Shown: positions 1 through 11,605 of the stretch, piece by piece | How the letters are laid out: the number at the start of each line of letters is the position of its first letter | Position numbering within the stretch: position 1 is the first letter of the stretch | UHGV virus genome: UHGV-0220921 | Length of the DNA: 36,267 nucleotides | Source: a virus | Strand: one strand, 5' to 3' | Program-made: the position numbers and the translations under genes | The notes under the pieces: model-generated | Seen by the model: only the letters and a program-made list of their open reading frames with translations | Told to the model about the DNA's origin: nothing | Databases searched by the model: none

Positions 1-311
1 TCCTCCTCGAAATACTCATTCAGTATCTCTCTATACTTTTCTACAAATTTGAAACGATCTTGATGAAGTTTCTGGCTCCAATTTGTTTGCTGATCCAGCT
101 CACGCATCTGATCGAACCCTTTTTGAATTTCGTTGTAATAAAATTCAATGTTTGCCGCTGCTTTCCAATGCCTGCTACTTCGCACTCCTGCTCCTGTTTC
201 AGCCATTTCTAACTTAACTAATTCCGCTCGTTCTTTTGATTTTTTGTCTTTCTGAATCTTCATCATGATTTTCTTGAGGATGATATCACTGTATTGTGTA
301 ATGAGATCCAT
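1..311 (-). CDS. hypothetical early protein; ATG at 309-311, 3' end runs off window position 1 in linear view
   Basis: Manual minus-strand translation gives MDLITQYSDIILKKIMMKIQKDKKSKERAELVKLEMAETGAGVRSSRHWKAAANIEFYYNEIQKGFDQMRELDQQTNWSQKLHQDRFKFVEKYREILNEYFEE. Its start overlaps the stop of 311..610 as TAATG. If the window end is joined to the start, the frame closes as ...EED then TAG at 36264-36266. Confidence 0.5.
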   Translation of the reverse strand, partial: MDLITQYSDIILKKIMMKIQKDKKSKERAELVKLEMAETGAGVRSSRHWKAAANIEFYYNEIQKGFDQMRELDQQTNWSQKLHQDRFKFVEKYREILNEYFEE

Positions 312-610
312 TATTTCTCCTCCACATACCTAAATTGTCGTCCTTTTGAATCAATCCATAAGCTCCTAGCTCTATCCCAGATAATGTTTTTGCTTAATCC
401 AGTAATTTCAGATAACTGTTCAGCAGTACCTGTTACTAGAATTCGATCACCATGCCAGATTGCAATTTTTCTCGGCGTTTTCCGTTTAGGCTTTTCAGTC
501 CACATTGATTTACCGATCTTTTGGACTTCTGCAACTATTTCTTTGTCTTCTTGCCAATTCTCAGAATGTGTCAGTTCGATGATTCGTTTCATTGCTGCTT
601 TCTTATCCAT
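311..610 (-). CDS. hypothetical small early protein with HTH-like segment (ILVTGTAEQLSEITGLSKNIIWDRAR)
   Basis: ORF track entry. Packed in the minus-strand early operon with start/stop overlaps on both sides. Confidence 0.45.
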   Translation of the reverse strand: MDKKAAMKRIIELTHSENWQEDKEIVAEVQKIGKSMWTEKPKRKTPRKIAIWHGDRILVTGTAEQLSEITGLSKNIIWDRARSLWIDSKGRQFRYVEEK

Positions 611-767
611 CCTGAAGTTCTCCTTTCAATAATTTGAGTACTTGATCAAGTGCGCTCTCACGTCCACCATGGAACGTGTTGAGCCACTTGTCTTCGTACG
701 AGGCGCTTTGTCTTAAAGCTTCTTGATGCATTAGTTCGATCTGTGCTGTAAATGTTTTTAGATCCAT
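603..767 (-). CDS. hypothetical small protein; start trimmed to MDLKTF
   Basis: The track ORF 603..824 overlaps the upstream gene by 53 nt. The internal ATG at 765-767 is preceded by AGGTG and sits just after the TAA of 772..1041. Confidence 0.35.
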   Translation of the reverse strand: MDLKTFTAQIELMHQEALRQSASYEDKWLNTFHGGRESALDQVLKLLKGELQDG

Positions 768-771
768 CTGA

Positions 772-1041
772 TTACACCTGCTCAAGTTCACTAAGATGTT
801 TTTGCAATCCTTTAACACAATCAATGAATAGTAATTTGGTATATGCTAAATTTATTAATTGCGTTCCATCGATATAGAGTGCGAAATAGTATCTGAGTTT
901 ACTCCAACTCGAACGATCATTCTTAATTCCTTCAATTCCAGCTTCTTCGAGTTGATCATATACGTCTCTCAGGACGTCTAATTCCTCGCCCTTTTTATAA
1001 TTCGCTATTTCATTAATTAGTTCTAGATAATCGATCTTCAT
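772..1041 (-). CDS. hypothetical replication-module protein
   Basis: ORF track entry. Lies directly downstream of the replisome organizer on the same strand. Confidence 0.45.
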   Translation of the reverse strand: MKIDYLELINEIANYKKGEELDVLRDVYDQLEEAGIEGIKNDRSSWSKLRYYFALYIDGTQLINLAYTKLLFIDCVKGLQKHLSELEQV

Positions 1042-1052
1042 TTTTCCACCTC

Positions 1053-1904
1053 TTAGAATGGTGCTTTTGATTGTCTATTAGCTCGTTCTAGCGCTTTTTT
1101 CTTGAGATAGGCTTCTTGGTCGATTGCCCATTCAGGAAGCTTCTCTCGTCTTCCTGTGCGCTTGTATCCACTGCTTGCATTCTTAGGCTCACTTTTTTCT
1201 TTCCTTGCCCAACTTCGAATAGTTGCCAAATAGTTTTTATAAGTCTTACCAGATGATTCACAATACTCAGATAGCCGTTCTATTCGTTCTTGATAGTCAT
1301 TAGGGAATTCTATTTTGAGTTTCTCCATCTGCTCATCTGACAAAAGAACATTTTTATACTCTCCATACTTATGACGGTTGGGCGTAGCCTTCGGTTTTTT
1401 CGGAGGCGTTACATTCTCTATATCTTTCTCTAACTCTATATCTTTCTCTAACTCTATCTCTAACTCTGGTGTAGTTTTGTCTGGACATTTGTCCGACACT
1501 TGTCCTCCAGTTATTAAATTTCGTTTTGCCTCTTCTATTTTCTTTCTGTATTCTCTTTTTCTATCTGCTTCAGTTGAGGATTTTCCAATGAAACTTTGTA
1601 TATCAGACATATAAATTGCTCCGTTATCTAATACGTCAATAAGCTGCAAATCACGGAAAATTTGTACCGCTTTTTCTACGACTCCTACAGAATGTCTTGT
1701 AATAGTTGCGAGCATTGTAGAGTTAAATGGAATCCTGTCATTAAACATCAACTTACCTTCGTGTTTTAGACTTCTTAAATAAAGTTTGAGAAGAATATTA
1801 GAATAAATATAGCCATCTGGCATACTTTCTAAGAGAACCATCTCGTCACTATCGAAAAAATTCTCTTTTAGTTTTAAATAGTAGTAGCGTTTGTTGTCAG
1901 ACAA
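1053..1904 (-). CDS. phage replisome organizer (N-terminal replisome-organizer domain with DnaD-like C-terminal domain)
   Basis: N-terminus MSDNKRYYYLKLKENFFDSDEMVLLESMPDGYIYSNILLKLYL is typical of Gram-positive phage replisome organizers. C-terminus YKNYLATIRSWARKE is DnaD-like. An internal acidic repeat ELEIELEKDIELEKDIE is encoded by DNA iterons. Confidence 0.75.
   Translation of the reverse strand: MSDNKRYYYLKLKENFFDSDEMVLLESMPDGYIYSNILLKLYLRSLKHEGKLMFNDRIPFNSTMLATITRHSVGVVEKAVQIFRDLQLIDVLDNGAIYMSDIQSFIGKSSTEADRKREYRKKIEEAKRNLITGGQVSDKCPDKTTPELEIELEKDIELEKDIENVTPPKKPKATPNRHKYGEYKNVLLSDEQMEKLKIEFPNDYQERIERLSEYCESSGKTYKNYLATIRSWARKEKSEPKNASSGYKRTGRREKLPEWAIDQEAYLKKKALERANRQSKAPF
1417..1464. 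repeat. 18-bp direct repeat CTATATCTTTCTCTAACT, two full copies plus a partial third, inside the replisome organizer gene; candidate ori iterons
   Basis: Read directly at 1417-1434, 1435-1452 and partial 1453-1464. In-gene origins with iterons are established for lactococcal and streptococcal phage replisome-organizer genes. Confidence 0.5.
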
Positions 1905-1910
1905 TATTTT

Positions 1911-2597
1911 TTACCCTCCTATTCTAAGTTTCTTAATTGTTTCCTGGTTTAACTTGATCCCTTTGATTTGATATTTATTTTTGAAATTGATCACACCTAT
2001 CTTGTGTTTCTCCGTGTGATGAATCCTGCAGAGTGCTGCAAATGTGTACTCTGAATGATCAACTTCTTTGCGCTTTCGTCTTCCTAGCGCTTTGTCAAAG
2101 TGATCGATATCAGCTCCTGTTTTGCCACAGATGCAACAAACTCTTTTTGTGATGCATTTGTAGAAGTAATATTCTTGATTCGCTGGTAAAATCTCATAGC
2201 CTTCTTTGAAAGGAATATGGTGTTCAAATATGAAATCTAAAATGATATTTGCTAAGACATTAGCATCACTCACGGTTGTGCTCGATTCGTCTTTGAGGCT
2301 TATTTCGCGCCCTGTGACACCTTCGAAACGGAAGTAGAAGAATTCCTTCCAGAAGTCCGTTGGCATGCCTGTATCGATAAAAATATCGCCTATCAGCGCA
2401 TAGATGAAGTTTCGTTGCTGTACGGTGAAACGTCTAGGATCAATAAAACGAATTTCAATAACTCGATCACCATCGTAGCCGTCATACATCGTCTTTAGTC
2501 GATCAATGTTCACTTCCTCATTGATGGTTGCGCCTATGTCTTTCCCTTTGAACTTTTTCAGAACCGCTGAATATGAATCGATTAATGGTTTAAACAC
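1911..2597 (-). CDS. HNH nuclease-domain protein (C-terminal CxxC...DxDH...C..HH..KH)
   Basis: C-terminal CCICGKTGADIDHFDKALGRRKRKEVDHSEYTFAALCRIHHTEKH matches the HNH motif layout. It sits between the annealing protein and the replisome organizer. Confidence 0.55.
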   Translation of the reverse strand: MFKPLIDSYSAVLKKFKGKDIGATINEEVNIDRLKTMYDGYDGDRVIEIRFIDPRRFTVQQRNFIYALIGDIFIDTGMPTDFWKEFFYFRFEGVTGREISLKDESSTTVSDANVLANIILDFIFEHHIPFKEGYEILPANQEYYFYKCITKRVCCICGKTGADIDHFDKALGRRKRKEVDHSEYTFAALCRIHHTEKHKIGVINFKNKYQIKGIKLNQETIKKLRIGG

Positions 2598-2602
2598 TCA
2601 TA

Positions 2603-3337
2603 TCACTTCTCTTTTGTTTCTTCTCTGTACTGATCTTCAAGCCAATTAACGCCTCGTTTTAGAATGCCCAAGTCTCTCTTGGTCCATTTACTGTCATCAG
2701 CGGTTATAGAAGCCGCATCAGTCAATGCAACAATTGCTTCATCAATTGATTTTTCGTACTTGTTAGCAACCAGTTGTAAAGCATCCAAGAATAGCTTTTT
2801 GCTTCTTTGAGTAGCTGGTTCAAGCATCGAGACATCTTCTGGCATGTCTTCACCTGCAAAAATATATAAACCAAGTCCAAACATAGCAAGATTCTTTACT
2901 AGGCAGCGCATGATCGTCTTATTGATATCAAACATAGTTGCTGCTTCAACTCGCTTTTCGATTTTTCCAACAATCTCTTTTTTCTTCGTTTCGTTATTCC
3001 ACTGATAATCATTGACTTCGTAGGTATATGGCTCATCTTTCATTGCCTTGTTTGCACCATCCATGACTGGTAACCACATGTCACGCTTTACTCCGTTGAC
3101 TGTGATACTGGTAAAAACCATATAGCCTGTTTTTTCATCAAAGAGGTATGGACGATGCGTTTCTGGATCACGATAGATTTCGTAGTCTACTTCTTCGCAG
3201 ATTTTGCTGACTTCTGCCCATGCCCATGCCCAGGACAGATAAGTTAGTTTGTTTCTTTTTTCGACAACATCATTGACGGTTATCTTGTATAGACTATTGA
3301 ATAATTTGTTATCGTTGCGTTTCGTTCCTTCACTCAT
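2603..3337 (-). CDS. putative single-strand annealing protein (Sak/Rad52-like, DUF1071-type), recombination module
   Basis: No Walker motif. The YLSWAWAWAE segment and position upstream of replication genes match the recombinase slot. Start trimmed to MSEGTKR (ATG 3335-3337, GAGG RBS, ATGAGTGA overlap with the upstream stop). Confidence 0.45.
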   Translation of the reverse strand: MSEGTKRNDNKLFNSLYKITVNDVVEKRNKLTYLSWAWAWAEVSKICEEVDYEIYRDPETHRPYLFDEKTGYMVFTSITVNGVKRDMWLPVMDGANKAMKDEPYTYEVNDYQWNNETKKKEIVGKIEKRVEAATMFDINKTIMRCLVKNLAMFGLGLYIFAGEDMPEDVSMLEPATQRSKKLFLDALQLVANKYEKSIDEAIVALTDAASITADDSKWTKRDLGILKRGVNWLEDQYREETKEK

Positions 3338-3671
3338 CAAATTCTGCCTCCATTTCAGCAATGTATTTCTTACCTGGTCCGTAATAAGAGATATCAATCA
3401 AGTTATCCCTTTCATACTCTTCTAATGCATCAATCAAGCCATCTTCGATGACGTAAATATATTCAGGTTTATTTGAATGTTTTAATAGATGAATAAGGTA
3501 AACATGATCCCAAATACTCACAAAATTGCCCAAATCGTCTTGATCGCACGCTAGCTCTTCATTTGTCAAAAGATTTCGTCTGATTTTTCGATTATTTGTT
3601 TCCTCGACATTCGATTTGCCCCAACTAGGATCAGTCAAATATTGATCTAGAGTGGAAAGTTCTTTTTTCAT
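3330..3671 (-). CDS. hypothetical early protein
   Basis: ORF track entry. AAGGAG RBS lies 10 nt upstream of ATG 3669-3671. Confidence 0.5.
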   Translation of the reverse strand: MKKELSTLDQYLTDPSWGKSNVEETNNRKIRRNLLTNEELACDQDDLGNFVSIWDHVYLIHLLKHSNKPEYIYVIEDGLIDALEEYERDNLIDISYYGPGKKYIAEMEAEFDE

Positions 3672-3847
3672 GTGGTAACATCTCCTTAGATGTATTTTGT
3701 ATGTGACTCTATGCTTGCCGGCTGAGTCACTTTTTTATTTGTTGCCATGCCTTTTTCTTGTCGATTTGTTGTTGGCTTAGGATGATTGGTTTGTTATGTC
3801 TCCACCAGCGATTAGCAATTACCGTCCCTATTCTTAGCGCTTCAGCT

Positions 3848-4573
3848 CTATTCATTGTCATCACCAAAAAGTCTCTGTTGTCTGTTCAGTTGATCAATTT
3901 CCATACGGATCGCAGTTTCTGGCAACCACATTTCAATAAATGAAACAGCATCATCGAATCTCTTACGAGGTAACTCGCCATATCTTGGGATTGAAAAGGT
4001 ACGTTTAAATTCAGACCAAAATTTTGAGAATACTTTTTTGCTGATTTCTTCATAAGCTCGGCTTTCTTTACCTCCTAAAACTTCCATAACTTTCATATTT
4101 CCTTTTTGCTTAATTTCAAACTCTTGTTGTCCGCTAATTCGCATAGTATCTTTAAGCATGGAGACATCTTTTTTTACATCTTTCATTTCTTCTAATTGGT
4201 AGATCATCATGTCTTCAATCGTTTGAGGAACAGTATTTTTACGAATGACATCTTCCATCTCGTTGAATGCTTCAATAAATTTGAGTTTGAAACTTATTGC
4301 TTTACTTCCAGTGAATCCCATAGCTAACAAGGAAAATCCATCTCTATTCATGAAAAAAACTCTCCGACTTCTCCCATACGTGTCCGGCTCGTTTCCTTCT
4401 ACAAACATCTTCTCAAAATTGAGCACATCTTCAACATTGGCCGAATTTTCGACCGATCTTTTTACTGATTCAATTGCTTCTAGCACATGCTTATGTTTCT
4501 TTTCGAAAGCTTCAGCTACTTGCAAGCTCGTAGTCACAGCTTCTTTATTTTTCAAAATTACTAATTCTTGCAT
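3848..4573 (-). CDS. phage antirepressor (Rha-family N-terminal domain with ORF6C-type C-terminal domain)
   Basis: N-terminus KEAVTTSLQVAEAFEKKHKHVLEAI is Rha-like. The C-terminal half resembles ORF6C domains. Position is typical, downstream of cro. Confidence 0.7.
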   Translation of the reverse strand: MQELVILKNKEAVTTSLQVAEAFEKKHKHVLEAIESVKRSVENSANVEDVLNFEKMFVEGNEPDTYGRSRRVFFMNRDGFSLLAMGFTGSKAISFKLKFIEAFNEMEDVIRKNTVPQTIEDMMIYQLEEMKDVKKDVSMLKDTMRISGQQEFEIKQKGNMKVMEVLGGKESRAYEEISKKVFSKFWSEFKRTFSIPRYGELPRKRFDDAVSFIEMWLPETAIRMEIDQLNRQQRLFGDDNE

Positions 4574-4602
4574 TTTTATTTCTCTCCTTTTGGTATAATT
4601 TA

Positions 4603-4611
4603 GGTAAAAAC
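4603..4611 (+). promoter_or_regulatory. extended -10 promoter (TGGTATAAT) for the plus-strand DUF2513-like gene
   Basis: The sequence ttggtataat sits immediately upstream of ATG 4614 and 4626. Confidence 0.4.
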
Positions 4612-4613
4612 TG

Positions 4614-5015
4614 GTGGTGTTTATAATGAAATTAAATCAAGATTGCGTACGTGACATACTCCTTCTAATCGAGGATGAGATTTCTTTTGGAAGTTTTCTA
4701 CGATTAGACTTCTTCTTAGCCTCTGAAAAACTATCGAAATATGATAGTGAGACTATAAAATACACACTTGCTAAACTTGATGAAACAGAATTTCTGAAAT
4801 CAAATACTAGATGGGTAAATAATGATTTAGCATCTTTTTCTACTGGAATGATTACGTGGAAAGGTCACAAATTTTTAGATACAATCCGTGATGAAAAAGT
4901 TTGGTCAAATACAAAATCGATTATCTCTAAATTTTCAAGCGTATCTATAAGCATGGTAGAATCAATCGCATCCAATGTAATAACTCAACTTATAGAAAAA
5001 CAGTTACGCGTTTAA
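4614..5015 (+). CDS. DUF2513-like small phage protein, opposite strand to the surrounding early operon (likely start MKLNQDC at 4626)
   Basis: The MKLNQDCVRDILLLIEDE N-terminus resembles DUF2513-type phage proteins (recalled from memory). It has its own extended -10 and converges on 5004..5189. Confidence 0.55.
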   Translation: MVFIMKLNQDCVRDILLLIEDEISFGSFLRLDFFLASEKLSKYDSETIKYTLAKLDETEFLKSNTRWVNNDLASFSTGMITWKGHKFLDTIRDEKVWSNTKSIISKFSSVSISMVESIASNVITQLIEKQLRV

Positions 5016-5189
5016 TTTAAATTCAGTTCTTCCAACCAGTACGTATAAATTGTTTTTTGCTTCAGGAAATTGCTTTATCATTTCATTGAATTCTTCAGTG
5101 TTTAATAAACTTGATGATAGGTTATTAGTATGCTCGACAACAATTGGGATATTGTTTTCTTCATCTTTGTAGAAATAAATAATCTCCAT
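5004..5189 (-). CDS. hypothetical small protein
   Basis: ORF track entry. ATG at 5187-5189 lies directly after the TGA of the upstream small membrane ORF. Confidence 0.4.
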   Translation of the reverse strand: MEIIYFYKDEENNIPIVVEHTNNLSSSLLNTEEFNEMIKQFPEAKNNLYVLVGRTEFKLNA

Positions 5190-5192
5190 TAG

Positions 5193-5363
5193 TCAGTCCC
5201 TCCCGACTGGCTTTTTCGCTCTATACTCAGCTTCATCCAGCCCTATAAAAATCCAAACCATGTAAACGATCGTTCCTATCAACGCTTGTCTATTTCCCCA
5301 AAGTCCTAAAGCGTAGATGATTAGCGGTGCGCTGAATACTAATGTTCGATTAAACTTTCCCAT
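5193..5363 (-). CDS. small two-helix membrane protein (56 aa), absent from the ORF track because it is under 60 aa
   Basis: Manual translation gives MGKFNRTLVFSAPLIIYALGLWGNRQALIGTIVYMVWIFIGLDEAEYRAKKPVGRD. It has a strong RBS, AAAGGAGGAAAAAC, before ATG 5361-5363. Confidence 0.5.
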   Translation of the reverse strand: MGKFNRTLVFSAPLIIYALGLWGNRQALIGTIVYMVWIFIGLDEAEYRAKKPVGRD

Positions 5364-5931: not shown

Positions 5932-6132
5932 GAATACATAGAGAAATAAGCCTATAACAAAGCCTTTTATTTGCACTTGGTCGCCAAACTTTATGCTATA
6001 AGGTGTGTTTTTAGTTTGCTTTTTTCTATCAAATTAACTTACGGATAAATAATAACTCTATATCGTAAAATTGTAAAGCTATTTTTACTCTTTTTCGTAA
6101 ATTATTTTTTCGTGTTGGAAAGGAACGTTGGA

Positions 6133-6555
6133 ATGACAACATTTGAAAGAATAAAAGAACTAGCGAAAAACAAGAATAAAAACCTTCAACAAGTCGCTAA
6201 AGATTTGAAGTACGGAGAGAATTACTTTTATAGTTTAAATGCAGGAAAACAGCCAACTGCCGAAAAGTTACAAGAAATTGCTGACTACTTCGACGTATCT
6301 GTAGATTATTTGCTAGGACGTACTGAGAAAAAAAGATACTATGATTTAACAGAAAAAGACGAGCGTGATATTCAACAAGAATTACAGTCATTAATCGACG
6401 ATTTATCTAATGCTGATGGAATGGCTTTTTCGAAGAAAGATAATGAAATGAGTGAAGCGACACGTGAAGCTCTCATTATTTCTTTAGAGAATGCTTTGCG
6501 AATAGCTAAAATAGAAGCTAAGAAAAAATACACACCTAAAAAATATCGCGATTAA
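6133..6555 (+). CDS. XRE-family HTH repressor (cI/ImmR-like)
   Basis: N-terminal HTH FERIKELAKNKNKNLQQVAKDLKYGENYFYSLNAGKQPTAEKLQEIADYFDVSVDYLLG. RBS AAGGAA precedes ATG 6133 (the track start at 6112 lacks an RBS). It is followed by ImmA. Confidence 0.85.
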   Translation: MTTFERIKELAKNKNKNLQQVAKDLKYGENYFYSLNAGKQPTAEKLQEIADYFDVSVDYLLGRTEKKRYYDLTEKDERDIQQELQSLIDDLSNADGMAFSKKDNEMSEATREALIISLENALRIAKIEAKKKYTPKKYRD

Positions 6556-6565
6556 AAGGAGTACG

Positions 6566-6994
6566 TTGTTTATGTATTTACCTCAAATTGATAACAAAAT
6601 TAATAAGCTGGTAAAACTATATCAAACACGCAATCCTTTTAGAATTGCACGAGAATTGAAGATACTAGTTTTAGAAGAAGATTTGGGAGAAATTTATGGT
6701 TACTATAGTAAATTCAAACAGATAAAAATGATCCACATAAATTCTAGTTTAGATGAGATGGGAAAATGGATAACTTGTAGTCATGAATTAGGCCACTGTG
6801 TTTTGCATCCGAATGAAAACACACCTATGTTGTCTAAAAAAACGCTAGTATCTGAATTAAAAATTGAAAAAGAAGCAAATTATTTCGCAACTCATCTGAC
6901 TATTGATCCAACTTTAGACGGCTTTGATCATATGACAAAATATGAAAAGCTCGTCTGCTTTGGATTACCAGATGAATTCGATCGTTTCTTGTGA
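6566..6994 (+). CDS. ImmA/IrrE-family zinc metalloprotease (anti-repressor protease)
   Basis: HEXXH motif in CSHELGHCVLHP. Canonical position directly downstream of the XRE repressor. Confidence 0.85.
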   Translation: MFMYLPQIDNKINKLVKLYQTRNPFRIARELKILVLEEDLGEIYGYYSKFKQIKMIHINSSLDEMGKWITCSHELGHCVLHPNENTPMLSKKTLVSELKIEKEANYFATHLTIDPTLDGFDHMTKYEKLVCFGLPDEFDRFL

Positions 6995-7022
6995 ATTATA
7001 ATACAACGTAAGGAGGATATAG

Positions 7023-7223
7023 ATGAAAATAGGAATGAGAAAACCAAGTATAAAAAAATCCATAAGCGCTAGAACCACTGGAAAAGCAAAAAGAAAAGTA
7101 AAAAAAGCAGTTATTCCTGGTTATGGGAAAAAAGGTAGCGGCTGGATTAAAGACCCAAAAAAGGCTGCTTACAATAAAGTTTATAAAAAGACTACGTTTA
7201 GCTTTTGGGACTTATTTAAATAA
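7023..7223 (+). CDS. very lysine-rich small protein (66 aa) in the immunity operon
   Basis: AAGGAGG RBS. MKIGMRKPSIKKSISARTTGKAKRKVKKAVIPGYGKKGSGWIKDPKK is strongly basic. No family recognised. Confidence 0.45.
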   Translation: MKIGMRKPSIKKSISARTTGKAKRKVKKAVIPGYGKKGSGWIKDPKKAAYNKVYKKTTFSFWDLFK

Positions 7224-7308
7224 AAAAAGCCCGTGCAGCAACACGGACTCGAAACCTTATTTCTAAGATTCCCCAATAAAATAATATCATAGAGATAAGG
7301 AGTAGAAA

Positions 7309-7749
7309 ATGAAATTTATTAAATTTGGAATTATTGGATTACTAGTAGTGACAGTTATGGGAGGATGTGGAACATCAACAGCTGAAACAAAGGAATCAAA
7401 AAATTATAGTGAGACAAACAGTACTATCAAAGAAGTAGACTCTGATCAAACCGCTGAGTTTGCAACTATTGCCGAGAAACACATTAAAGAAATATATTCA
7501 ATAGATAATTTGAAGATGGATTTAAAATCTATCAAAGTTACTCAATTTCCTGACGATAAAAATGCAGAAACTGGTGAAGAGTACAAAAATGTCTACAATG
7601 GTACTGGAGATTTTACTTGGCAAGACAAAAAATACAACTTTTCTTTGATTTATTCGAAAAAAGATGCAACTAATTATACCGTCCTATATCTATATAGCAA
7701 TCTAGACCCTAATAAAGGTGTAGATACACCATTAGAAAGCGATCAATAA
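7309..7749 (+). CDS. lipoprotein (signal peptide with lipobox VMGGC), candidate superinfection-exclusion or lysogenic-conversion protein
   Basis: MKFIKFGIIGLLVVTVMGGCGTS. It lies between the repressor/ImmA genes and int, a typical sie position. GGAG RBS. Confidence 0.65.
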   Translation: MKFIKFGIIGLLVVTVMGGCGTSTAETKESKNYSETNSTIKEVDSDQTAEFATIAEKHIKEIYSIDNLKMDLKSIKVTQFPDDKNAETGEEYKNVYNGTGDFTWQDKKYNFSLIYSKKDATNYTVLYLYSNLDPNKGVDTPLESDQ

Positions 7750-7886
7750 AAAAGCACATTTACCGCCCGACCAAGAACGCAAATGTGCAAAGAGCTACGG
7801 TAAAGTAGGTCTATTTGTTGTACCCTATTTTACCATCTCGAAATCCGCTGTACAACCGAACAAACGTACGAAAGGAAAGATAAAAG

Positions 7887-9092
7887 ATGGCAAAAAAAGA
7901 AATTGATAAACGAATTAAAAAGCACTTAACAAAAAAAGGAGAAGAAAAATATCAGTTTAGTCTGTACTTAGGAGTTGATCCGCTAACAGGAAAAAAAAGA
8001 AAAACAACGAGACGAGGTTTTAGTACGCCATTAGCCGCTGAGAGAGCTTTAAAAAGATTGGAGGCAGATATACAGGAAAAAGGACTGCAAGCTTCTACAG
8101 CTCAAAAGAGCAAGAAATTCGAATATGTTTACGGCTTATGGTTTGAAAATTATAAAAAGACAGTTAAAGAAAGCACTTGGTCCTCCACCAAACAAATTTT
8201 TGACACACACATCTTAAAAGTGTTTGGAGATAAGTTCATTGACAAAATAGACGTTTTTTTCTGTCAAGAAGCAGTAAACACTTGGTCCGATAGCCATCCT
8301 AAAATTTTTAAGAAAATAAAAAATTACACATCTAATGTTTTTGATTACGCTGCTTCTTTACAAATTATAACTAGCAATCCTATGAAATTAGTTTCTATTC
8401 CACGTGGAGAAGCTCTAGATATCGAAGATAAAAATATCGAATTTTATACTAAAGAAGAATTAATCGAATTTTTAGAAGCAATAAGAAACGATGATGATGA
8501 AAGATATTTATTCTTTTCCCTATTGGCTTTTACAGGTATAAGAAAAGGAGAAGCTTTTGCACTGACCTGGTCGGATATTGATTTTAAGAGCAAAACACTC
8601 AATATTAATAAAACTGTAACAAGAGGTTATCAAGGGAGATTGATCGTAAATACTCCTAAATCAAAATCTGGAAAAAGAAAAATTTATCTGGACAATGATT
8701 TGATCAGTTTATTGAGAAAGTATTATACAAAAAACAAAACGATCGTTACAATCCAAAGCGAAAACTTAATTTTTCACCATGATGGTCTTCTCTATAACCC
8801 TACAGTTTCACGTTCGTGGCTTAATGTCATATATAAGCATCATCCAGAATTAACTAAAAGAATCACTACTCATGGTTTTCGACATACTCATGCCTCTCTC
8901 CTTTTTGAATCAGGAGCTTCTTTAAAAGATGTTCAGGAACGTTTAGGGCATGCAGACATTCAAACTACTTCAAATATTTACACTCATGTAACTGAAACTC
9001 AAAACAAAAAAGTTATCAATAATTTTGTAGCATTTATGAAGAATAGTACTCAGGGGGAGTCAAAAGGGGAGTCAAAAAATATTTTAGGTTAA
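7887..9092 (+). CDS. int: tyrosine site-specific integrase
   Basis: C-terminal catalytic region HGFRHTHASLLFESGASLKDVQERLGHADIQTTSNIYTHV carries the R..HxxR..Y signature. It is followed by the attP-like region. Confidence 0.95.
   Translation: MAKKEIDKRIKKHLTKKGEEKYQFSLYLGVDPLTGKKRKTTRRGFSTPLAAERALKRLEADIQEKGLQASTAQKSKKFEYVYGLWFENYKKTVKESTWSSTKQIFDTHILKVFGDKFIDKIDVFFCQEAVNTWSDSHPKIFKKIKNYTSNVFDYAASLQIITSNPMKLVSIPRGEALDIEDKNIEFYTKEELIEFLEAIRNDDDERYLFFSLLAFTGIRKGEAFALTWSDIDFKSKTLNINKTVTRGYQGRLIVNTPKSKSGKRKIYLDNDLISLLRKYYTKNKTIVTIQSENLIFHHDGLLYNPTVSRSWLNVIYKHHPELTKRITTHGFRHTHASLLFESGASLKDVQERLGHADIQTTSNIYTHVTETQNKKVINNFVAFMKNSTQGESKGESKNILG
9054..9077. repeat. tandem 12-mer GGGGAGTCAAAA x2 at the int 3' end (encodes GESKGESK); candidate integrase arm-type site
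   Basis: The exact 17-mer AGTCAAAAGGGGAGTCA at 9058-9074 recurs at 9301-9317 in direct orientation, flanking the tRNA-like core. Confidence 0.45.
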
Positions 9093-9355: not shown

Positions 9356-9429
9356 TGTACCCTGTAGGACTCGAACCTACGACCGGACGGTTATGAGCCG
9401 TCTGCTATGACCAACTGAGCTAAGGGTAC
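9356..9429 (-). tRNA. tRNA with CAT anticodon (elongator tRNA-Met or tRNA-Ile2 type), 74 nt, CCA not encoded
   Basis: Manual fold of the minus strand: acceptor GTACCCT/AGGGTAC (7 bp), D-loop with GG, anticodon stem GACGG/CCGTC with loop CTCATAA, variable loop CGGTC, T-arm GTAGG-TTCGAGT-CCTAC, discriminator A. The paired 1-72 position argues against an initiator. Confidence 0.8.
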
Positions 9430-9583
9430 GGAAAGCCATAAACAGTCAACCAGTAGAATGTGTGGCAACAAACCTGTTATCGCATATCTTGGAGTGTGAC
9501 TATTTATGAGTGATAGTGAAGATATGCGACAACATCACTATTTTATCGAATGATTTTTATAGTTTTCAATATAATTATGTACT

Positions 9584-9611
9584 TCCCCTCAAAAATGAGG
9601 GGCTATTTTTA
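9584..9611 (+). terminator. intrinsic terminator (TCCCCTC-AAAAAT-GAGGGGC followed by TATTTTTA)
   Basis: Hairpin plus T-tract. It is near-identical to the terminator at 10567-10590: TATGTACT[T/G]CCCCTCA...GAGGGGCT. Confidence 0.6.
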
Positions 9612-9728
9612 TAACGTCAAATAGAACAGATGGTCGAGGAACGGAAAAAATAATTAAATAATTTGATTATTTTTTCAAAATGCTTTACTAAAGTCTATTT
9701 CCATTGATATACTGTAAGAGAGCAAAAT

Positions 9729-9757
9729 TTGACTTTCATTATTTTATGAAGTACAAT
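9729..9757 (+). promoter_or_regulatory. sigmaA-type promoter TTGACT-17-TACAAT driving the small-ORF/GNAT cassette
   Basis: Read directly. It lies about 45 nt upstream of the AGGAGG RBS and ATG 9803. Confidence 0.6.
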
Positions 9758-9802
9758 GTGAAAGTTTCAAACTAAATATAGTCCATTTAGGAGGTCATAA
9801 AA

Positions 9803-9982
9803 ATGCGTCTAAATTTAGAGCAGAATCCATCCATTTTTGTTGCAAATTCTACAGAAATGAAGAGAATTACTTCAGTCGCATCAAATAAAAAGAAAACATT
9901 TCTATCAGAAAAAGATTACAATAAAAGTGTAGAATCTGCAAAAAAAGCTTTTAATAATCTAGCATTTGAATTATCACGATGA
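9803..9982 (+). CDS. small protein (59 aa), translationally coupled (ATGA overlap) to the downstream GNAT gene; candidate antitoxin-like partner
   Basis: Strong RBS TTTAGGAGGTCATAAAAATG. Manual translation gives MRLNLEQNPSIFVANSTEMKRITSVASNKKKTFLSEKDYNKSVESAKKAFNNLAFELSR. The TGA at 9980-9982 overlaps ATG 9979-9981. It is not in the ORF track because it is under 60 aa. Confidence 0.5.
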   Translation: MRLNLEQNPSIFVANSTEMKRITSVASNKKKTFLSEKDYNKSVESAKKAFNNLAFELSR

Positions 9983-10554
9983 CAATTAAGAGCTGTGCAT
10001 ACAATGCATATATAGACACACAAAAAATAAAGGGTTTTTATTGTGAAAATGAACGTATCAACAATTTTTTTCATGAAGAAGCCGAAGAATTAGAAAAATG
10101 TGGTGCTGGAAATACAATAATCTATTATGAAGATTCAACTGGTGAAATATTCGGATTTTACACCCTATCGCTTCGTCCTTTAAATATTACAGAGCTAAAA
10201 AAGTATGATAGATTTAATAAAAAATTCTTAAGTGACTTTGCTAATTCATTCGAAATAGAAGAATTCCCTGCTCTCGAAATTATGAGATTGGGAGTAAGTT
10301 ATGATCATAGACTTAAACGTATAGGCGCTTCTATGATTTATGATATTTATAAGCAAGTTATTGAATTGCAAATTTACTATAATCTGCCAATAAACGTTAT
10401 CTTTATAGAAGCTTTATATGAAGTTACTGAATTTTATGAGAAACTAGGGTTTGAGTTCATTAAATATTCTGATGAAGAACATCGTCTCGAAAAATATCCT
10501 ATGTTGATCAACACAAAAAAAATAATTGACATTGTATATCCAGAATCAAAATAA
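9979..10554 (+). CDS. GNAT-fold N-acetyltransferase (moron gene; candidate toxin of a GNAT-type toxin-antitoxin pair)
   Basis: GNAT motifs LEIMRLGVSYDHRLKRIGASMIYDIYKQV and FIEALYEVTEFYEKLGFEF. Located between attP and the lysis cassette on the strand opposite to the lytic genes, with its own promoter and terminator. Confidence 0.65.
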   Translation: MTIKSCAYNAYIDTQKIKGFYCENERINNFFHEEAEELEKCGAGNTIIYYEDSTGEIFGFYTLSLRPLNITELKKYDRFNKKFLSDFANSFEIEEFPALEIMRLGVSYDHRLKRIGASMIYDIYKQVIELQIYYNLPINVIFIEALYEVTEFYEKLGFEFIKYSDEEHRLEKYPMLINTKKIIDIVYPESK

Positions 10555-10566
10555 TTTCTATGTACT

Positions 10567-10590
10567 GCCCCTCATCGAGGGGCTTTTTTT
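10567..10590 (+). terminator. intrinsic terminator (GCCCCTC-ATC-GAGGGGC followed by TTTTTTT)
   Basis: Hairpin plus T7 tract directly after the GNAT stop. It is a near-duplicate of 9584-9611. Confidence 0.7.
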
Positions 10591-11605
10591 ATCGTTGCGG
10601 AATATTTAAATACCAACGCTTGTCATGAAAATCTTGCGCTCCACCTTTAGTGTTCCCTTTTGGATCATTCGTTGCCCGCATCATGACGTATACTTTCTTA
10701 TTAGGAAAATTACGCATATTGAAAGATACGTGGTATCCGACATTTCCAGAAGTATTATAAGCTTGATTTACATCTGGTCTATATACTCCGTCAGCTTTTA
10801 CTCTAGCTAATTCTTTCCCAGTATTGTAATCCATAATGAAAATATACTCGTATTTATAGTTAGCGATGTGCCAACCAGCTACATGCAAGTTTGCGTTTTC
10901 GATTTCTCCGAACTGATCAATGTGGGCGTAATTCGTTCCATCTGTCAGTGTAGGGTTTGCTGCACCTGCTCTAGTTGGATCAATGACTGGTTTATCATCT
11001 GAAGTTGTCGGATTTTCATCGGTAAATCCATGAGCTAAATCATAGGCTAATTTTTCTTTACTTACGCCCATTTCAGAAAAATAACCGTAAGGATCTGTAT
11101 GATCGCCCCAAATATTTTGTGTTACCCATAAATGCGATTTGATTCCTGGTTGGTTATAAGGCGTGTCTAACGTAAGTGGAATACCATATTTCTGAGCAGA
11201 ATCTCTTGCCAATTCAACGTATGCCTTGTAGTTTTTCTCAAACGTTGCTTTATCATGTGTGTGTTGTAACTCAATCTGCACAGAACTGTTGGCATTAGCA
11301 TATGAACCAGCGCCATACTGCACATAACCAGGTTGACCGACTTGGTAAACGATTCCGCCATCACCCACAATGTAAGCAGTGTAAGCACTAGTCCATGAAC
11401 GTTGCATATACTGCGCTTCATTGCGTCCTGTTGCTGTTTCATTAGCCGTTTCATGCAGTAAAATGTACTGATTATTTGCTACTTGTGAGCTACCTTCATT
11501 TGCGCCCAAATTAAATTCATTGTTAATCGTGTAGGCAAATCCATTTACTGGCAACAAAAAAAGAGCCATTAAAAGGCTCAATGACAATACTATTTTCTTT
11601 TTCAT
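10589..11605 (-). CDS. endolysin: N-acetylmuramoyl-L-alanine amidase (Amidase_2/PGRP-type) with N-terminal Sec signal peptide and C-terminal wall-binding region
   Basis: N-terminus MKKKIVLSLSLLMALFLLPVNGFAYT is a signal-peptide-like sequence. The ILLHETANE amidase motif is present. It is the last gene of the late operon, directly after the holin region. RBS AGGAGG. Confidence 0.85.
   Translation of the reverse strand: MKKKIVLSLSLLMALFLLPVNGFAYTINNEFNLGANEGSSQVANNQYILLHETANETATGRNEAQYMQRSWTSAYTAYIVGDGGIVYQVGQPGYVQYGAGSYANANSSVQIELQHTHDKATFEKNYKAYVELARDSAQKYGIPLTLDTPYNQPGIKSHLWVTQNIWGDHTDPYGYFSEMGVSKEKLAYDLAHGFTDENPTTSDDKPVIDPTRAGAANPTLTDGTNYAHIDQFGEIENANLHVAGWHIANYKYEYIFIMDYNTGKELARVKADGVYRPDVNQAYNTSGNVGYHVSFNMRNFPNKKVYVMMRATNDPKGNTKGGAQDFHDKRWYLNIPQR

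Follow-up and report, generated by a model that had tools for sequence, protein, structure and literature searches.

A mobile two-gene cassette of temperate Firmicute phages encoding a relative of GNAT toxins and a small basic partner

The viral genome UHGV-0220921 (36,267 nucleotides; the whole stretch is referred to here as the window) carries a short cassette of two genes between a tRNA gene and the lysin gene. The cassette encodes a small protein of 59 amino acids (aa), called the partner below, and a GNAT acetyltransferase of 191 aa. Comparisons of sequence and predicted fold firmly establish that the acetyltransferase belongs, as a diverged member, to the lineage of tRNA-acetylating toxins and has kept its catalytic residues. 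Sequence comparison places the partner just as firmly in a new family of small basic proteins, as the obligate and conserved companion of the GNAT, and identifies the cassette as a two-gene moron that is mobile among temperate phages of Firmicutes and transcribed autonomously. The pair combines a toxin-related GNAT with a partner outside the known antitoxin families, so it is probably a new variant of toxin-antitoxin (TA) module carried by phages of Gram-positive bacteria. The enzymes appear to form a phage-borne sister lineage of the GNAT toxins in Enterococcus, Listeria, lactobacilli and streptococci, whose partners come from another family and whose charge pattern is reversed. An earlier note had read the cassette as a TA-like or abortive-infection module. 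The toxin-lineage GNAT and the coupled, conserved partner uphold this reading in part. It is weakened by the missing DUF1778 partner, the acidic enzyme and the position of the clade, on a rough tree, outside the DUF1778-linked toxins.

Relatives and predicted fold of the acetyltransferase

The GNAT gene (9979..10554, plus strand) encodes a 191-aa protein with an isoelectric point (pI) of 4.99 and a net charge of -9. Its full length is covered by the PHROG 1758 'acetyltransferase' profile (E 7.4e-29, residues 7-183 versus profile positions 13-182 of 184). Pfam gave sub-threshold GNAT matches only, and no NCBIfam model matched the window protein. When the single sequence was compared with the sequences in the PDB, the five best matches were all GNAT toxins. 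A profile built from five close homologues recovered ItaT (7BYY) over its full length at 2.4e-9, KacT at 7.6e-6, TacT3 at 3e-5 and AtaT at 4e-4. Further matches of this profile were GmvT, AtaT2, TacT1 and TacT2, and non-toxin GNATs were absent at E<0.1. With a broader profile, 16 toxin sequences were matched at 1e-26 to 1e-32, and the next GNAT followed at 1e-9 over its C-terminal part only. The structure 7BYY is that of ItaT (PMC7367177), 5FVJ is TacT (PMC4942678) and 7F36 is TacT with tRNA (PMC13219725).

The predicted fold points to the same proteins. An AlphaFold model built on 112 sequences reached a mean predicted local distance difference test (pLDDT) score of 91.5. In a Foldseek search of the PDB, the top 38 matches to this model were all GNAT toxins, with template modeling (TM) scores of 0.64-0.80 (normalized by the query), and the matches that followed scored about 0.53. 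ItaT was the best fold match (TM 0.80/0.86). Profile comparison and model together show that the protein is a dimer-type enzyme sharing ancestry and fold with the toxins ItaT, TacT, AtaT and KacT. The GNAT assignment in the earlier note was therefore borne out by the PHROG match and by the toxin matches in sequence and fold, and the HMM and structure searches grouped the protein with TA toxins and not with housekeeping or antibiotic acetyltransferases.

Several residues with known roles in the solved toxins are retained. Residue roles in ItaT, AtaT, KacT and TacT were taken from published work (PMC7367177; PMC7595197). Y153 of the window protein aligns with the general-acid tyrosine (ItaT Y150, KacT Y145, AtaT Y144, TacT Y140) and is invariant in the 112 sequences; KacT residue 145 is Y in 5ZGN and F in the Y145F entry 5XUN. 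G116 of the acetyl-CoA loop aligns with ItaT G115 and AtaT G108, and is at least 90% conserved in the same 112 sequences. The ItaT aminoacyl-pocket residues I37 and F40 have I27 and F30 as their counterparts in the alignment, and L136-P137 aligns with L133-P134 of the ItaT dimer interface. The N-terminal FxC motif of the family is retained as F20-x-C22, as is a basic patch (K74, K75, R78, K81 and K82) near the position of the tRNA-binding segment. This patch falls within an insertion between beta-3 and beta-4 (approximately residues 70-93), where the protein is 11 residues longer than TacT and the model is less confident (pLDDT 75-78). Because of this insertion, which amounts to some 11 residues or more, the GNAT is longer than the canonical toxins, as had been remarked of it relative to TacT.

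The closest characterized system is ItaT-ItaR of E. coli HS, a type II TA of the GNAT/DUF1778 kind. ItaT is the best match in both sequence and fold, and in both systems the partner gene lies upstream. Common to the two enzymes are the catalytic tyrosine, the acetyl-CoA-loop glycine, an FDCG-type N-terminal motif, the hydrophobic aminoacyl pocket and the xLPx dimer-interface motif. However, they share only about 17% identity, and the window enzyme is acidic and carries the extra segment at about residues 70-93. The basic alpha-1 residues of ItaT correspond to N, H, E, E and K in the window. ItaR is a DUF1778 ribbon-helix-helix (RHH) antitoxin of about 90 aa, whereas the partner in the window is a basic protein of 59 aa. 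TacT/TacA, AtaT/AtaR, KacT/KacA and GmvT/GmvA belong to the same superfamily and fold, and all of them ranked above any non-toxin GNAT. These systems are found on proteobacterial chromosomes and thousands of plasmids and consist of basic enzymes with DUF1778 antitoxins, whereas the clade of the window is phage-borne in Firmicutes. The well-studied GNAT toxins of Proteobacteria are, to our knowledge, always paired with DUF1778 (or DUF4065) antitoxins.

Homologues of the enzyme are numerous. An exhaustive HMMER search returned 827 representative clusters at E<=1e-3, of which 63 remained at E<=1e-10. A scan of the genome-contig collection with the five-sequence profile found no relative, and a scan of the viral-contig collection with a narrow alignment found two near-identical loci only.

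The small partner and the mobile cassette

The partner gene (9803..9982, plus strand) encodes a protein of an unclassified family with a pI of 9.9 and a net charge of +5. It is preceded by the Shine-Dalgarno sequence AGGAGG (9790..9795, plus strand), 7 nt before the ATG at 9803, and is coupled to the GNAT gene by an ATGA overlap (9979-9982). The strong ribosome-binding site, the 59-aa open reading frame (ORF) and its overlap with the 191-aa ORF were all present as described in the earlier note.

A homologous ORF of 49-64 aa lies upstream of the GNAT gene in all 13 loci examined. The two genes are joined by ATGA, by an overlap of -14 or -17 nt, or by a gap of a few bases. These loci include the window, four close metagenomic homologues, loci from IMG/VR, the Listeria phage A118 (where the small ORF is gp26), a Latilactobacillus phage and the Streptococcus phage Javan126. 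Phages or prophages with the pair come from Enterococcus, Listeria, Latilactobacillus, Lactiplantibacillus, Lentilactobacillus, Tetragenococcus and Streptococcus; the small ORF and GNAT are carried likewise by the Lactiplantibacillus, Lentilactobacillus and Tetragenococcus contigs. Between the window and locus L008 the partner has a dN/dS of 0.09. The GNAT gives the same value, and both genes are under purifying selection. The expected conservation of the small ORF and its coupling to the GNAT gene were thus found. The partner proteins can be aligned with one another and are all basic (pI 9.5-11.3).

The partner family has no recognizable relatives in the databases that were searched. Eleven members contained no relevant Pfam domain, and 17 homologous clusters, all named hypothetical, contained neither DUF1778 nor any other Pfam domain. 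No match to the small protein was found in NCBIfam or PADLOC. A partner profile gave chance-level matches only against the PDB. The AlphaFold2 monomer model is weak (pLDDT 67), with an extended segment at residues 1-15 and helices at 16-28 and 36-58, and this low-confidence model found no match in the PDB with Foldseek. The earlier note had seen the small protein as loosely RHH/DUF1778-like. Aligned with six DUF1778 antitoxins from plasmid loci by hhalign, it reached a probability of 0.2% and a score of 9.7 (shuffled-column null 7.4 +/- 1.05), and alignments with full-length DUF1778 and with its N-terminal and C-terminal halves taken separately all fell inside the shuffled null. A DUF1778 (COG4453) ribbon-helix-helix identity was rejected, as neither Pfam, the clusters, hhalign nor the fold supported it. 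A by-eye likeness of the partner to the C-terminal neutralizing segment of DUF1778 (phi-x-phi-x-x-E-x-F...N-P) is not claimed.

The cassette is bracketed by two copies of a terminator, as had been noted. The left copy (9576..9612, plus strand) forms the left boundary and consists of a hairpin at 9585-9602 followed by the T-run CTATTTTTAT. The right copy (10559..10593, plus strand) forms the right boundary, with a hairpin at 10567-10583 followed by TTTTTTTATC, and the T-run of this copy overlaps the stop codon of the lysin gene, which lies on the other strand. Folding of the two hairpins is predicted to yield -12.4 and -13.6 kcal/mol (z about -3.2), and three terminator-like sites occur in this 2 kb versus 0.9 expected. 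The similarity of the two copies extends past the stems. It comprises 16-nt blocks on either side of the loop (9576-9591 matching 10559-10574, and 9597-9612 matching 10577-10592), each with 94% identity, and the copies differ in the loops only.

The unit between these boundaries (9613..10593, plus strand; about 980 bp) contains a promoter, the two genes and one terminator copy, and related phages carry the site in other states. In Enterococcus phage 4995_1 a single terminator occupies the site. Its left flank matches the sequence left of the cassette in the window, and its right flank matches the sequence to the right of the second terminator, which is the 3' end of the lysin gene. In this phage and in Listeria phage LM 4-11-1, about 1.4 kb is found where the window takes 2.38 kb. 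By overall similarity the nearest phage is Siphoviridae sp. ctekg1, which shares 94-97% identity with the window across its structural and lysogeny modules; there the integrase is directly followed by a different lysin and the cassette is absent. The IMG/VR locus L011 has the same cassette with 99% protein identity and an IS30-like transposase as its left neighbor; its homology to the window starts exactly at the left terminator hairpin, and the flank beyond differs. The GC content of the cassette is 28-30%, compared with 35-42% in the flanks. From the single terminator in 4995_1, the gap in ctekg1, the boundary in L011 and the GC content, it follows that a unit of about 980 bp, bounded by the duplicated terminator, moves between phage backbones. 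The cassette thus has the marks of a moron: its own promoter and terminator, presence or absence among syntenic phages, and atypical base composition. The check for absence from syntenic relatives proposed in the earlier note was positive, which agrees with the moron nature it had assigned.

Transcription of the cassette would start from a sigma-A type promoter (TTGACT-17-TACAAT; 9729..9757, plus strand) that matches 10 of 12 consensus positions and had been pointed out before at this place. The promoter region is almost invariant across loci L009, L011 and L012. Upstream of it lies a near-perfect 33-bp palindrome, GAAAAAATAATTAAAT-A-ATTTGATTATTTTTTC (9644..9676), with two AAAATAATNAAA half-sites, which is a candidate operator. 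A third half-site is located inside the promoter spacer (9734-9745). The 12-mer occurs three times in the 36-kb window, each time in the promoter region of the cassette. These half-sites fit autoregulation, and a putative operator function is suggested by the pattern, which was recognized post hoc in AT-rich DNA. Repeats were also observed over the promoters of other cassettes. In L006, four tandem copies of an (A)AATAGTTTAAAAA unit lie at about 4600-4700, upstream of the small ORF (4816), in the promoter region of a cassette with 48% identity. In L021, a 20-bp palindrome lies within the promoter spacer. The repeat over the promoter seems to be particular to each lineage.

Possible functions of the pair

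The most economical mechanism for the pair is a type II TA-like module in which the partner would neutralize a GNAT that acetylates charged tRNA. On the sequences and models at hand we hold this proposal in even balance. Points in its favor are the toxin matches in sequence and fold, the retained residues, the constant gene order in 13 loci, purifying selection on both genes, the confinement of the operator-like 12-mer to the promoter region, and a tblastn search of plasmids in which the window GNAT matched DUF1778-GNAT pairs only. The charges of the two proteins are also complementary (enzyme -9, partner +5), and the basic partner may bind and silence the acidic enzyme. The trigger would be loss of the partner, for instance when a second phage infects the cell, transcription is shut off or the prophage is lost. 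The freed enzyme would then acetylate charged tRNA using acetyl-CoA. Translation would come to a halt, with growth arrest or abortive infection as the possible outcome, and the half-sites around the promoter could serve autoregulation. A more specific proposal is that the cassette is a prophage system for abortive infection or superinfection exclusion, which acetylates charged tRNA and is restrained by a new small basic antitoxin. We regard this proposal as rather doubtful; if true, the cassette would be the first anti-phage module built on a GNAT toxin, at home in phages of Firmicutes, the model phage A118 among them.

Several observations weigh against a TA function. The partner has no detectable similarity to DUF1778/RHH or other DNA-binding proteins by Pfam, PDB profile, Foldseek or hhalign. 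PADLOC-DB 2.0 contains no family that matched either cassette protein at E<=1. In the enzyme, the first glycine of the Q/RxxGxG loop is replaced by R114 in the window and by Arg, His or another bulky residue across the clade. Helix alpha-1 (ERINNFFHEEAEELEK) carries the acidic residues E33, E34, E36, E37 and E39. At the positions of the AtaT tRNA contacts H34, R37 and N41 the window protein has E34, E37 and C41, and E36 and E37 align with ItaT K46 and K47. The clade as a whole is acidic, with an average pI of 5.0 in the nearest 32 representative homologues compared with about 9 in the canonical toxins (8.7-9.8 in six of seven DUF1778-linked plasmid toxins).

The placement and distribution of the clade may point in the same direction. 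The phylogeny is a neighbor-joining tree of 171 sequences, a rough estimate from distances that lacks support values; the window protein served as the root, midpoint rooting being uninformative. In this tree, a single clade of 35 sequences (mean pI 8.5, mean length 172) takes in every solved and every DUF1778-linked toxin, and outside it are the window, A118 gp27 and 134 others (mean pI 6.1, mean length 190). A tblastn search of plasmids with the window GNAT gave two matches only, both of them DUF1778-GNAT pairs, compared with 3,617 plasmids matched by a canonical toxin. The clade is almost absent from plasmids, and so it is not a typical addiction module. A literature search found no study or experiment on any member of the window GNAT clade, including A118 gp26/gp27. 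Bikmetov et al. (2022) described TA-like bicistronic GNAT loci that lie outside the 'true TA clade' and have short upstream ORFs without DNA-binding domains, and reported GNAT toxin homologues to be almost absent from Firmicutes (PMC9177977). Such outlier loci may have evolved other functions, or they may pair with unidentified antitoxins (PMC9177977). Their description suits the cassette in the window; the paper neither characterizes the loci nor ties them to phages (PMC9177977).

An enzyme that has moved past its toxin function would account for some of these observations. In that case charged tRNA would not be its substrate, and the acetyl group would go to, for example, a basic protein of host or phage, or a small molecule resembling a polyamine. 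The small basic protein would then be the substrate, an adaptor or a regulator, and the cassette would act as a factor of lysogenic conversion or phage competition that is not toxic to the host. This rival is credible because of the charge inversion and the tree position, although we consider it on the unlikely side. The charge is inverted relative to the canonical toxins, with helix alpha-1 acidic at the tRNA-contact positions, the clade is rare on plasmids and falls outside the DUF1778-linked one on the neighbor-joining tree, and the beta-3/beta-4 insertion is modeled with lower confidence. However, the FxC(G) motif, the hydrophobic residues of the aminoacyl pocket and the dimer-interface motif are retained, and no non-toxin GNAT is close in sequence or fold. 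An acidic overall charge, moreover, does not preclude a local binding site for the tRNA 3' end. A change of function is explicitly left as a possibility for such loci in the survey of Bikmetov et al. (PMC9177977).

Two other explanations fit the evidence less well. An anti-defense enzyme of the AcrVA5 type would inactivate a host immune protein by acetylation. Acetyltransferase anti-CRISPRs exist, and in A118 the gp26/gp27 pair lies directly beside AcrIIA1, AcrIIA2 and AcrIIA3. With a sigma-A promoter and terminators of its own, however, the cassette is transcribed apart from the acr operon, to which it is convergent in A118. No acr genes occur nearby in the window and in most other loci, the nearest relatives of the enzyme are toxins, and the expression signals appear to resemble those of a lysogeny-expressed rather than an early lytic gene. 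Such a role is accordingly judged highly improbable. It is still harder to credit that the GNAT is an ordinary housekeeping or antibiotic-resistance acetyltransferase that entered the phage by chance, with the small ORF being spurious or a leader. The Pfam GNAT matches are generic and sub-threshold, and weak matches to NCBIfam models of RimI, PaiA or AAC occur for some members of the family. The window protein itself matches none of the NCBIfam models, though, and the small ORF is conserved across genera with a dN/dS of 0.09. All significant PDB matches in sequence and fold are toxins, and on that evidence the housekeeping or resistance reading was rejected.

Should the pair prove to be a TA or abortive-infection module, both its antitoxin type and its class of prophage cargo would be new; otherwise, it is an example of a repurposed toxin scaffold. 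The homologous gp26/gp27 in the tractable phage A118, beside an anti-CRISPR locus, makes the question directly testable.

Related loci and the genome setting

In A118, the homologous pair gp26/gp27 likewise forms a two-gene cassette; it has a promoter and a terminator annotated as its own and follows the endolysin gene directly. Both the A118 and the window enzyme fall in PHROG 1758. The A118 cassette differs in its identity (about 26%), in being on the same strand as the lysis genes, and in adjoining acrIIA genes. In the A118 locus (L003), gp26/gp27 and the acrIIA1-acrIIA2-acrIIA3 operon lie side by side in convergent orientation (2790-3552 and 3622-4835). The RefSeq record of A118 names the product of the endolysin Ply118 'ferredoxin', an obvious annotation error. 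In Javan126 (L005), a 178-aa GNAT homologue (2947-3483) is missing from the annotation of the record, in which only a 56-aa fragment is called. It overlaps the annotated 49-aa ORF Javan126_0050 by ATGA and lies between the lysin gene and the streptodornase and paratox genes. In Lentilactobacillus sunkii (L016), the small-ORF/GNAT pair (3819-4588) is located away from a lysin gene. It lies amid insertion sequence (IS) elements, an OLD-type ATPase-Toprim nuclease and Eco57I-type restriction-modification genes, a setting that resembles a defense island. The Listeria TerI system was also checked and is unrelated to the cassette.

The gene content of the window resembles that of a temperate siphophage of the Enterococcus/Listeria type in circularly permuted order. 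Early genes on the minus strand (1-5300) encode a Rha antirepressor, a Sak annealing protein, an HNH nuclease and a replisome organizer. Lysogeny genes on the plus strand (6112-9092) encode a cI-like helix-turn-helix protein, an ImmA-like peptidase, a lipoprotein and the integrase (7887-9092, plus strand). A tRNA(CAU) gene (9356-9429, minus strand) lies between the integrase and the cassette, and the cassette is located between this tRNA and the lysin gene (10589-11605, minus strand). From 10589 onward the minus strand carries the genes for lysin, holin, tail, head and terminase, and both cassette genes are on the plus strand, opposite to the lytic genes, as the earlier note had it.

Copies of the tRNA(CAU) recur near related loci. 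The copy in phage 4995_1 differs by 1 nt and is called tRNA-Ile by PGAP. In the window, a G-to-T change disrupts one pair of the D-stem. L006 contains a diverged tRNA(CAU) (3989-4064) with compensatory changes in the acceptor stem and D-stem, about 750 bp upstream of its 48%-identical cassette. Copies are recorded at L012 1281-1356 and L001 2912-2985, and ctekg1, the closest relative, has no tRNA at the corresponding site. ItaT, the closest solved homologue of the GNAT, favors Ile-tRNA; the position beside a tRNA(CAU) may be a coincidence or reflect a common integration site. Between the tRNA and the first terminator lies a non-coding block of 178 bp (9432-9612), which is 92-93% identical in Listeria and Enterococcus phages. 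It holds a 16-nt inverted repeat (9475-9490 and 9519-9534, 94% complementary) and could be an attP-related element or a small RNA. The lysis cassette has likewise been exchanged relative to ctekg1 (window 10589-11605 versus L029 2589-3365), in which another endolysin and holin directly follow the integrase.

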